DNA of 64,000 bases from Escherichia phage 4E10. Below, piece by piece: positions 42,984 through 47,142 of this stretch. Where the stretch lies: the sequence record OQ689735.1, one strand, 5' to 3'. The notes under the pieces were generated by a model, which saw only the letters and a list, made by a program, of their open reading frames with translations, searched no databases and had not been told where the DNA came from. Positions within the stretch are counted from its first letter, which is position 1. The number at the start of each line of letters is the position of its first letter. The translations under genes and the position numbers were made by a program.

Positions 42984-43300
42984 AAGTCCTCAACTTGAAA
43001 ATCGTCTTTAAACAATCGGTTAACTATATGAGCTATTATATCACCATGACACGGCTTTGGTTTACATGTGCATCCTAGCCTCATTCCACGTAAAGGCTCT
43101 AAATGTGCTTTAGTTATTTCTCCGGATTTAATTCGACGTATAAAATCTTTTTTGAATAATTCAATGGCAGCCTCCCGGCTGCCAGCATCTTTACCGACGT
43201 AATTTCCCCAAAATGTACCACGGTGAATATTAACATCAAAGTCGGATTTATATTTATTCACTACTCGGCATATACGGCCTGCGCGGTTGTAAGTGTTCAT
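42974..43300 (-). CDS. small Cys/His-motif protein (nrdA.1 position)
   Basis: 108-aa ORF; motif [15 protein letters not shown] suggests metal-binding site. Confidence 0.55.
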
Positions 43301-43517
43301 ATTGTTCTTCCGTTAAAACAGTAATATCGTAGTAACAGTCAGAAGAAGTTTTAACTGTGGAAATTTTATTATCAAAATACTCACGAGTCATTTTATGAGT
43401 ATAATATTTTTTGCCATAAATGATAATAGGCTGATTTGGTCCTGGAACTTCTAACTCGCTTGGGTTAGGAAGTGTAAAAAGAACAACGTCAGAAGTATCT
43501 TTAAATCGTAAAATCAT
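43254..43517 (-). CDS. hypothetical protein (nrdA.2 position)
   Basis: 87-aa product from first ATG at 43517. Confidence 0.5.
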
Positions 43518-43537
43518 AAATCCTCGCAATAATAAAA

Positions 43538-44398
43538 TTATACCGCCATCTTTCCTTTAATTGGCGGGTGAGATACATAGTCGTTAAGAACAAAATTATG
43601 CGGCTTTGCGAATTGACTCAACCAAAATACCTGTGATTCTGTGTCCCATTCATCAAATTCATCTGGGAATTTTAATTGTAATTCGCATAAATCCATAGGT
43701 TCACGACATAAAATTTCTTTACATTGTTCTACGTGATTCATATAGATATGAGTATTACCACCAGAAAATATCAAATCTCCCGGAATAAGATTACACATCT
43801 TAGCTACAATATGAACTAACGTAGCATATGATGCAATATTAAATGGAAGACCGAGGAAAACATCTACCGAACGTTGATACCACTGAAGGTCAAGGTATCC
43901 ATTACGCACATTAAACTGATAGAACATATGACAAGGCGGTAATGCCATATATTTAAGTTCAGCTGGATTCCACGCAGAAACAATTTGACGCCTATCATTT
44001 GGCAGTTTTTTAATACGATCAATAACTTCTATAATTTGATCTACACCGCCAAAATCACGCCACTGTTTTCCATAAATTGGACCAAGTTCACCGCTATGGT
44101 ATCCTAAATCTTTTGCTTGATTTTCGTAATTTTCATCCCAGACTGTTTTGCCTTGAATTAATGAATCATGTTGAATTAATCGCAAATCATTGACATTTGT
44201 GCTTCCTGATAAAAACCATATTAGCTCAGCAATGCATGCATTCCAGGCGAGCTTTTTAGTTGTTACTGCAGGAAAACCTTTGGTTAAATCCCAACGCAAT
44301 TTAGTACCGAACAAAGCAATTGTTCCTGTGCCCGTTCGGTCATCGGTTTCATAGCCATTTTCAAAAATGTCTTTAATTAAATCTTGGTATTGTTTCAT
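43538..44398 (-). CDS. td: thymidylate synthase, uninterrupted
   Basis: 286-aa continuous ORF; ThyA active-site region [11 protein letters not shown]; same length as spliced T4 TS. Confidence 0.95.
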
Positions 44399-44443
44399 TT
44401 AGTACCTTATATAAATTATAATACATTTTATGAAGCTAAATAA

Positions 44444-44791
44444 TCAATACGGTTTAGCATCAAATTTTCTCTCAATTTCAGGCGTGAAATATAATTCTTT
44501 ACCGCGTTTGGAAAAGCGACCAATAATATGATAATTATTCTCATCAAACGTGATATTACCAATATCCATAGCTTTCAACCAAATATCGATATTTCTATCC
44601 AGCTTTATGTCAAAATTCCAATACGGAGAACTATTACCGAAAATACTACAAGCGGATTCAGTGAAACAACTGCTATAAATCTTGTCTTTAGGAACTACTA
44701 ATTGATAGACACCTTTAATAAACTGAGGACCCTGCCACTTTGGCTGTTTCTCATCTTTTTCTAATAGAATAGGGTAATAATTAAAATTCAT
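44444..44791 (-). CDS. hypothetical protein inserted between td and frd
   Basis: 115-aa ORF with ATG start; no motif recognised; not expected at this position from T4 gene order. Confidence 0.55.
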   Translation of the reverse strand: MNFNYYPILLEKDEKQPKWQGPQFIKGVYQLVVPKDKIYSSCFTESACSIFGNSSPYWNFDIKLDRNIDIWLKAMDIGNITFDENNYHIIGRFSKRGKELYFTPEIERKFDAKPY

Positions 44792-44810
44792 ATTTCCGCC
44801 GCGCGTTATT

Positions 44811-45730
<920 letters not shown>

Positions 45731-45822
45731 TATATTTTCCTCAAATTCATTTAAATCAAGATTATGCAATTTTTAAAGCATTGCATAATCGAATTCGTCA
45801 TTCATAAATTCAAAAACAAAAA

Positions 45823-46182
45823 TCATATTATCTCCCATTGAAAAGGGTCATGAGCATATCCGCTAGCGTCAATCATTTTAACTAAAGTTACCATTCCTTT
45901 GTTAACTGCTTGTGCGATTTCATCAAAAACTTCGTCACTATCGTCGTAAAGGTCATTAAAAAGTTCTAATACGTTCTTCTGAACTTTTAATTTACGGCCG
46001 ACAATTTCGCCTACAGTAAATTCGTTTCCGCCAAATCCAGCGTAAAATGTAATTACACCCATTAACTGGCTTTCACGGGAATCTATGTCGTGTGATAAAT
46101 TAATAAAAGCCGTCCCAGGCGCGGTTTTAAGTTGGCAACGAATTTTTACTTGGGTAATTCCAGTTATATGAATGTTAGACAT
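45823..46182 (-). CDS. hypothetical protein
   Basis: 119-aa ORF, ATG start with GAGAAA SD-like sequence. Confidence 0.55.
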   Translation of the reverse strand: MSNIHITGITQVKIRCQLKTAPGTAFINLSHDIDSRESQLMGVITFYAGFGGNEFTVGEIVGRKLKVQKNVLELFNDLYDDSDEVFDEIAQAVNKGMVTLVKMIDASGYAHDPFQWEII

Positions 46183-46192
46183 AATATTTTTC

Positions 46193-46435
46193 TCAAACAG
46201 ACTTTTTCACAATTTTCCAATCAGCTTTAAACTGTTCAACGTCAGAATGGTAAATCCAGAATCCTGCGCTTTCTCCATCCTCATAAAGAGGGCATCCATC
46301 ACATTCATCTTCCCATCCCATATCACGCAAAAGATGTTCAGCTTTTTCAACAAGTTCAGAATCTTTACCGATGATATTAAAATACCATTTACCTCTAACT
46401 TCTGAATCTTTGATGCTCTGGCGTTGTAATCTCAT
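46193..46435 (-). CDS. hypothetical protein
   Basis: 80-aa product from first ATG (track begins at TTG 46525 overlapping upstream gene). Confidence 0.45.
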   Translation of the reverse strand: MRLQRQSIKDSEVRGKWYFNIIGKDSELVEKAEHLLRDMGWEDECDGCPLYEDGESAGFWIYHSDVEQFKADWKIVKKSV

Positions 46436-46493
46436 TTTATTCTCCTCAAGTTGATAGGGTAATAGTATCACACTACTACCCTGTTGTAAACAA

Positions 46494-46754
46494 TTATTTT
46501 TGAATTTTATCGAGCCACTTACCAAGCTTAATCATTTCTTTAGTAGCCTTTTCCATACTTCTGAACTTAACCAATAGAGGATAGGTATCGACACCCATAA
46601 CTAAACTGGTTACAAGACTGTGTTCACCCACAAGCCATAACGAATACGTTTGAATATCGAGTCCGTAATTTCTGTCTTTATGGACCCGTACACCCATCAC
46701 TTCAAATTTCTCACTAGCTTTTTCTACCGCATCCAGGAAATCATCTTTAGTCAT
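46494..46754 (-). CDS. hypothetical protein
   Basis: 86-aa product from ATG at 46754 with AAGG SD (alternative ATG at 46796 lacks SD). Confidence 0.45.
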   Translation of the reverse strand: MTKDDFLDAVEKASEKFEVMGVRVHKDRNYGLDIQTYSLWLVGEHSLVTSLVMGVDTYPLLVKFRSMEKATKEMIKLGKWLDKIQK

Positions 46755-46755
46755 A

Positions 46756-47142
46756 TTAGGCCTTAAAAGTTTTTCGCAAAAGTTCAATGATTTCATCTAC
46801 ATTGTTTTCGTCAACAATGCAGTGAATTTTTGTTACGCCAGAAACTATACCTTCATTAGCGGATTGAGGCTTTTCTAAAGTTACCTCAGTAAAGTATTTG
46901 AATTCTTCAGAGTAAATCTCAAAATACGTCTCAAGTGGGCCACCCGCCATGTATTCAGTGCCGTCTTCCATAGTTACACGTACCACACAGTCACCAGCAC
47001 AATCATCACTTTCCATTTCATCTACAACAAAACTAGGTCCGTGCTTCTCTATTAAATTTAGCATCATTACATTGCAACGGCACTCGTTAGCAAAGTCATT
47101 TTTAAATAAAGGGTTAATGATATAAGTTTTTCCAACTTCCAC
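46756..47142 (-). CDS. hypothetical Cys-rich acidic protein
   Basis: 128-aa ORF initiating at GTG with strong GAGGAAA SD. Confidence 0.5.
   Translation of the reverse strand: MEVGKTYIINPLFKNDFANECRCNVMMLNLIEKHGPSFVVDEMESDDCAGDCVVRVTMEDGTEYMAGGPLETYFEIYSEEFKYFTEVTLEKPQSANEGIVSGVTKIHCIVDENNVDEIIELLRKTFKA

Follow-up and report, generated by a model that had tools for sequence, protein, structure and literature searches.

Results

The frd–td interval of phage 4E10

The window analysed here is a 64,000-nucleotide stretch of Escherichia phage 4E10 (OQ689735.1), a wV7/RB51-like Tequatrovirus, and the subject of this work is a small gene, here named X1, that lies in it between the genes for dihydrofolate reductase (DHFR; frd) and thymidylate synthase (TS; td) (Table 1). 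Our results give good support to the view that X1 is native to the frd–td operon, that it is conserved and dispensable, and that T4 has lost it. A preliminary description of the window had reported a 115-amino-acid open reading frame (ORF) with its own ATG and with spacers of 45 and 19 bp, coordinates that were reproduced by the ORF listing. It had also stated that frd and td adjoin and overlap in T4, which would make this ORF extra relative to that phage; the T4 genome (NC_000866) agrees on both points, with a 4-nt overlap of the two genes (ATGA) and no ORF between them.

The 601 bp around X1 are 100% identical to the corresponding DNA of Escherichia phage wV7, O157 typing phage 7 and Shigella phage Sf23, and 99.7% identical to that of RB51 and RB68. 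In all five phages X1 is labelled as a hypothetical protein, with the name RB32ORF229c in the RB51 record, and its protein is 99-100% identical to annotated proteins of T2, T6 and wV7. The profile hidden Markov model of phrog_1928 matches X1 significantly and over its full length (E=3.1e-36; residues 4-111 aligned with positions 2-125 of the 126 in the profile), which makes X1 a full-length member of this family, differing in nothing from a group that includes RB32ORF229c and the hypothetical protein encoded between frd and td in T2, T6, RB51, wV7 and AR1. X1 is already public as a hypothetical protein in hundreds of genomes and in PHROGs; searches of libraries and literature by ORF name, PHROG identifier, peptide and locus found no function, structure or phenotype for phrog_1928.

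Table 1. Features in and around the frd–td interval (positions are those of the window)
Feature	Position	Strand	Description
frd (dihydrofolate reductase)	44811..45392	minus	upstream gene of the operon; labelled frd in matching records
Relic ATG-AAA-TAA mini-frame	44814-44806	minus	overlaps the frd stop codon
Direct repeat copy 1, TAAATGAAA	44809..44817	minus	spans the frd stop codon TGA 44813-44811
frd–X1 spacer	44792..44810	minus	19 bp, GC-rich (53%), sequence AATAACGCGCGGCGGAAAT; weak Shine-Dalgarno-like GGCGGA
X1	44444..44791	minus	115 aa, ATG start, N-terminus MNFNYYPILLEKDEKQPKWQGPQFIKGVYQ; phrog_1928 member, RB32ORF229c-like hypothetical protein
X1–td spacer	44399..44443	minus	45 bp, 16% GC; td Shine-Dalgarno AAGG; promoter-like TATAAT
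Direct repeat copy 2, TAAATGAAA	44393..44401	minus	spans the td start codon ATG 44398-44396
td (thymidylate synthase)	43538..44398	minus	downstream gene of the operon; one contiguous intronless 286-aa ORF

The T4 junction and the alleles of the slot

At this site the window and T4 are set apart by an indel of exactly 416 bp, the ends of which are marked by a 9-bp direct repeat, TAAATGAAA; T4 has a single copy of the repeat. The coding-strand sequence is ...GTATATAAATGAAATAACGCGCGGCGGAAATATG[X1]...GGTACTAAATGAAACAATACC... in the window and ...GTATATAAATGAAACAATACC... in T4, and removal of one repeat copy together with the intervening DNA (416 bp in all) reproduces the T4 ATGA junction base for base. 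The flanking genes are closely similar in the two phages, with amino acid identities of 96.9% for frd and of 98.9% for the first 175 residues of td against T4 exon 1, and they are closer to T4 than to T2, though T2 has X1. Since frd and td of T4 and of FL12, whose slot is also empty, are 97-99% identical to those of the window, the loss of X1 appears to be recent and to have needed no compensation. Given that X1 stands at the same site across the subfamily and has diverged about as DHFR has, T4 is the exception, most simply by deletion, and its arrangement is most likely a derived state that arose through a recent microhomology-mediated deletion recreating the ATGA overlap.

Three alleles of the slot are found within Tequatrovirus. 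X1 occupies it in about 354-362 of the ~536 Tequatrovirus-like records (about two thirds, T2, T6, RB32 and RB51 among them), a different small ORF, Z, stands there alone in 137, and the empty state, seen in T4 and FL12, accounts by subtraction for an estimated ~45 records. The 137 records with Z in place of X1 are mostly Tequatrovirus-like, and in them Z overlaps its two neighbours, at the stop of frd and at the start of td; examples are Escherichia phage EcNP1 (L005, 1703-1909) and the loci L008 (2148-2354) and L010 (1806-2018). In Klebsiella and Serratia phages Z adjoins X1 or its paralog X2. The td gene of T4 is split by a group I intron with I-TevI; that of the window is intronless. A tie between the loss of X1 and the td intron or I-TevI was considered and rejected, since all four combinations of presence and absence of X1 and intron occur among the relatives.

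Distribution and synteny across T4-type phages

By tblastn the X1 family is present in 581 phage records. About 362 of them match at 90% identity or more, a group that includes T2, T6, RB32 and RB5 and that also covers phages isolated on Shigella, Salmonella, Yersinia, Serratia and Hafnia, and the other 219, with less than 60% identity, are phages of Klebsiella, Enterobacter, Citrobacter, Erwinia and Serratia. Relatives with 25-66% identity occupy the DHFR–TS interval in Jiaodavirus, Kanagawavirus, Moonvirus, Roskildevirus and Muldoonvirus, as well as in an unclassified Klebsiella phage, Edwardsiella phage PEi26 and metagenomic T4-like contigs, and the family holds the same position in at least seven named Tevenvirinae genera besides Tequatrovirus. 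Of the 28 family-bearing loci examined, among them 22 from the phage database and IMG/VR and 5 metagenome or genome contigs, none has the gene anywhere but between DHFR and TS, and it always shares their strand. When 1.84 billion representative proteins were searched exhaustively with HMMER, 23 matches were returned, all of ~100-116 aa except two spurious repeat proteins. A wider profile search of a 5.8-billion-protein cluster collection returned only proteins of 113-148 aa from T4-like phage contigs, and these matches carried no Pfam domains and no fusions.

These results change the picture drawn in the preliminary description, which had taken X1 for a small cargo insertion; with a homologue at the same site in most relatives and T4 as the exception, this is not supported. 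The description had itself named a homologue at the same position in T4 and most relatives as evidence that would speak against it, and one is indeed there in most relatives, T4 having none. The synteny comparison that it proposed finds X1 in T2, T6, RB32 and RB51 and not in T4, and X1 is not an insertion peculiar to the window. Its idea of a typical accessory slot applies within Tequatrovirus, where the slot varies among three alleles, but not across the subfamily, where the content is conserved and under purifying selection and is therefore not typical of arms-race cargo.

Outside Tequatrovirus there is usually an overlap between the frd stop and the start of X1, and another between the last small ORF and the start of td; such overlaps with frd and td are found in Jiaodavirus, Kanagawavirus, Moonvirus, Roskildevirus, Muldoonvirus and Mosigvirus SF, a layout that suggests translational coupling. 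Two tandem paralogs, X1 and X2, are common among the other genera, sometimes with Z as a third ORF. X2 (113-148 aa) carries an additional WALV..PTIEQYKRNP insertion and belongs to the same phrog_1928 as X1, while Z (68-70 aa, MSNKLKVKDVP...) falls in phrog_9550, a PHROG without assigned function, and is unrelated to X1. The fullest order, frd-X1-X2-Z-td, is seen in Klebsiella phage phi1_146055, in the IMG/VR loci L015 and L016 and in the metagenomic contig L026. The nearest relatives of the window X1 outside Tequatrovirus are on contigs L027 (66%), which is shorter and ends after X2, and L026 (63%). Amino acid identity to the window is 48% for X1 and 48% for frd in Kanagawavirus (Q7622), 38% and 46% in Jiaodavirus (VMC04), and 63% and 48% (DHFR) in contig L026, so that X1 diverges at about the rate of DHFR, as expected under vertical inheritance.

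Selection on X1

X1 is under strong purifying selection. Between the window and T2 there are 16 nucleotide differences in its 348 bp and a single amino acid change, and the ratio of nonsynonymous to synonymous substitution rates (dN/dS) is 0.012, compared with 0.086 for frd and 0.267 for td. Against Mosigvirus SF the X1 ratio is 0.065, below the frd value in the same comparison, and more than 580 records keep the frame intact. The phrog_1928 match, the 581 tblastn records, the dN/dS of 0.012-0.065 and the confidence of the structural model described below (pLDDT 90.1) establish that X1 is a real gene and not a chance ORF.

Lateral transfer to Mosigvirus SF

The X1 of Mosigvirus SF (L004, 2509-2856) is 90% identical to that of the window in nucleotides and 93% in amino acids, whereas its frd and td share only 62% and 74% nucleotide identity with those of the window. 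The synonymous divergence (dS) between the two phages is 0.56 for X1, 1.8 for frd and 2.2 for td. In other Mosigviruses frd and td overlap directly, without X1. Because the SF X1 is far closer to the window than the SF frd and td are, and the other Mosigviruses lack it, SF must have gained X1 from a Tequatrovirus-like donor, which by this comparison of sequences makes it a clear case of lateral acquisition across genera.

The edges of the SF gene are also informative. Its ATG overlaps the frd stop, and a 23-bp stretch of the window, which includes the 19-bp spacer, is absent; in the window these additional 23 bp leave a relic ATG-AAA-TAA mini-frame. About 30 bp of the X1–td spacer are missing in SF as well. 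Conserved short sequences at the end of frd and the start of td seem to serve as junctions for loss and gain alike.

Predicted structure

An AlphaFold model built from a 24-sequence alignment reached a predicted local distance difference test score (pLDDT) of 90.1 and a predicted template modelling score (pTM) of 0.83; an earlier run with 4 sequences (pLDDT 61) was discarded in its favour. The predicted elements are strands at residues 6-12, 27-34 and 62-64, a helix at 68-77, and strands at 80-82, 86-96 and 99-104, and X1 is predicted to form a small beta-barrel with an OB-like beta1-beta2-beta3-alpha-beta4-beta5 order. It is on this modelled strand order that X1 can be compared with the OB-fold domains of SSB, RPA, Stn1-Ten1, S1 and Teb1. 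Foldseek found no significant match to the model in the PDB, and the matches in BFVD were only uncharacterised proteins of T4-like phages.

In X1 and X2 alike, residues Q16, W19, G27, Y29, G91, F93, K95 and G97 vary little or not at all, and they form a KQxKW loop motif after strand 1 and a GRFxKxG beta4-beta5 hairpin. The isoelectric point (pI) of X1 is about 7.7; the family is mildly basic, with a median of 8.6. The preliminary description had recognised no motif in the product, and our searches of Pfam, NCBIfam and the PDB by sequence and profile were in line with this, as they gave no meaningful match. A Pfam scan of 24 family members likewise found nothing meaningful and no nuclease family, and the PADLOC defence-system models returned 0 families at E up to 1. 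As regards anti-defence proteins, Pfam and PHROGs gave no annotated match, no dedicated anti-defence library having been searched. Neither the 1.84 billion proteins nor the 5.8-billion-protein cluster collection held a fusion of the X1 family to DHFR, TS or any other domain.

Discussion

The gene-level account of X1 given above is well supported, and it can be joined to a functional one that is weakly supported; taken together we regard the two as the best overall explanation of the locus, with a probability somewhat better than even. For the functional part, we tentatively propose that X1 is a dispensable small ligand-binding or adaptor protein that works with the thymidylate-cycle and replication machinery, a possibility that we favour while considering it doubtful. 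The proposal is based on the invariant position of the gene, its likely coupled expression with DHFR and TS, its DHFR-like evolutionary rate and the OB-like fold. X1 would be co-transcribed with DHFR and TS and, since start and stop codons overlap, is probably coupled to them in translation in most genera. Its product would be a 13-kDa, mildly basic, single-domain beta-barrel of OB-like topology. In OB folds the positions that correspond to the conserved loop and hairpin usually form the ligand-binding face (beta2-beta3, L12 and L45), where oligonucleotides, oligosaccharides or protein partners are bound, and it is because the KQxKW and GRFxKxG motifs, the only places with near-invariant residues, would fall at these positions in the model that X1 is taken as a binding or adaptor protein. 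The putative ligand may be a nucleic acid or a protein partner, and X1 would be neither an enzyme nor a nuclease.

Several observations weigh against this proposal. The lack of any DHFR or TS fusion in the large protein collections deprives a physical link of Rosetta-stone support, and T4, FL12 and most Mosigviruses are without X1 and still have near-identical DHFR and TS, which argues against an obligatory partnership. The variable Tequatrovirus slot, with X1, Z or nothing in it, fits a role in host interaction equally well. At the gene level, the direction of the T4 event, deletion as opposed to insertion with duplication, is inferred from the phylogenetic distribution.

A host-directed role would mean that X1 neutralises a function of host immunity or of competitor phages, or is sensed by one, with the operon site ensuring early expression. 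The slot is polymorphic in Tequatrovirus between otherwise conserved genes (X1 in about 354-362 records, Z in 137, empty in T4-like phages), T4 shows that X1 is dispensable, SF shows that it is exchanged between genera, and the protein is small, has no known domain and is confined to phages, all of which an anti-defence or host-takeover gene would be expected to display. However, the slot does not hold a changing assortment, the same family filling it in at least eight named genera, and X1 evolves at a DHFR-like rate under purifying selection (dN/dS 0.01-0.07) with no sign of diversification. It has no PADLOC match and no annotated PHROG function, it is not acidic as DNA mimics are, and the two papers on phage accessory-gene screening that were examined make no mention of X1 or of the frd/td locus. 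On balance we hold an anti-defence role to be rather unlikely, if a serious candidate. Much less room is left for a free-standing homing endonuclease or selfish mobile cassette, even though the family bears the label 'putative homing endonuclease' in the records of the BASEL phage Bas39 FriedrichMiescher (L033, 758-1105) and Klebsiella phage ValerieMcCarty04 (L003, 2501-2818). X1 is intergenic between conserved genes, bounded by the 9-bp direct repeat, gained laterally in SF and located ~0.55 kb from the I-TevI homing site in td, and its distribution is patchy within Tequatrovirus and Mosigvirus; in its intergenic site, its presence/absence polymorphism among close relatives and its one lateral transfer it resembles the T4 seg/mob genes and other T-even intergenic insertions. 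Unlike the seg/mob genes, which are sporadic, it keeps its position across the subfamily, syntenic and vertically inherited across genera and accompanied by tandem paralogs, and its presence is independent of the td intron. No Pfam, NCBIfam or PDB entry matches the window protein, the nuclease families GIY-YIG, HNH, LAGLIDADG, His-Cys box, PD-(D/E)XK and EDxHD included, and the 24 family members were covered on Pfam with the same outcome; the invariant Q, W, G, K, F and Y offer no plausible set of catalytic acids, His or Cys, and the predicted fold is a 115-aa beta-barrel. This reading is largely refuted and in our view very improbable, and in the absence of a nuclease motif or fold the label looks like an annotation error spreading between records.

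At the other extreme, X1 could be a spurious or decaying ORF without function, the remnant of a degraded module, over which transcription simply passes. T4 manages without it, and the neighbouring ancestral ORFs X2 and Z have already been lost in the lineage of the window. Against this stand the T2 comparison, in which 16 nucleotide differences produced one amino acid change, the frame kept open in more than 580 records, and residues conserved across relatives of 25% identity that give a confident predicted fold. For practical purposes the selection data refute decay, to which we assign the smallest probability of all the explanations considered. Base composition gives no support to a foreign origin of X1, whose GC content of 32.5% is ordinary for the genome (36.3% in the window).

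A more specific form of the binding or adaptor proposal is distinctly unlikely and is offered for what it would explain. X1, together with X2, might be a dedicated accessory subunit of the thymidylate cycle, an OB-like adaptor that holds DHFR and TS together or attaches them to the replication and deoxynucleoside triphosphate (dNTP)-synthetase complex. Protozoa and plants have a bifunctional DHFR-TS, in which the two activities are connected by a junction peptide. The phage order is similar, in that DHFR is followed by a short element and then by TS, but the three phage products are separate polypeptides and the databases hold no fusion, so that the likeness is an analogy that motivates a hypothesis and not a relationship. 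If true, the adaptor would be a counterpart of the junction peptide, and the exclusive location of the family between DHFR and TS would be explained.

For genome scanning, these results indicate that a difference from T4 is a poor proxy for novelty, as T4 is here the reduced outlier. What is useful is that T4 is recognised as the outlier, that the indel and its 9-bp repeat are defined to the base, and that phrog_1928, a strongly constrained family whose confident predicted fold has no close structural relative, is strictly linked to DHFR and TS. The locus also provides a base-by-base example of how T-even phages may gain and lose a small gene while keeping the ATGA stop/start overlap. As T4 and FL12 are natural X1 knock-outs, the role of the gene is cheaply testable.

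Neighbouring sequences

The 45-bp X1–td spacer is identical in T2 and in IMG/VR relatives, and it could be a candidate middle promoter of td, without counterpart at this position in T4. A TTTAGCTTCA stretch that resembles a MotA box lies upstream of its TATAAT. Rfam gave no credible RNA element over 43000-46500. No paralog of X1 was found elsewhere in the window, and hhalign detected no relationship between the X1 family profile and the neighbouring small ORFs (FRD2, DUF7247 and the ORF at 45389-45769).

Upstream of frd, the window holds three small ORFs that are absent from the T4 interval between frd and gene 32 (45389-45769, 45823-46182 and 46494-46796): one is without a Pfam match, one is a DUF7247 protein and one is of 100 aa, and DUF5417 (frd.1-like) and FRD2 are found alongside. 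The metagenomic relatives L026 and L027 have a richer ORF set, which makes T4 look reduced across the whole interval from gene 32 to td. At the other end of the operon, many Tequatrovirus records match the window only from ~159 bp into the query, the part before this being the td 3' end (43538-43695 of the window), and this start of the alignment marks the last ~158 bp of td and the td/nrdA.2 boundary as a second variable segment among close relatives.
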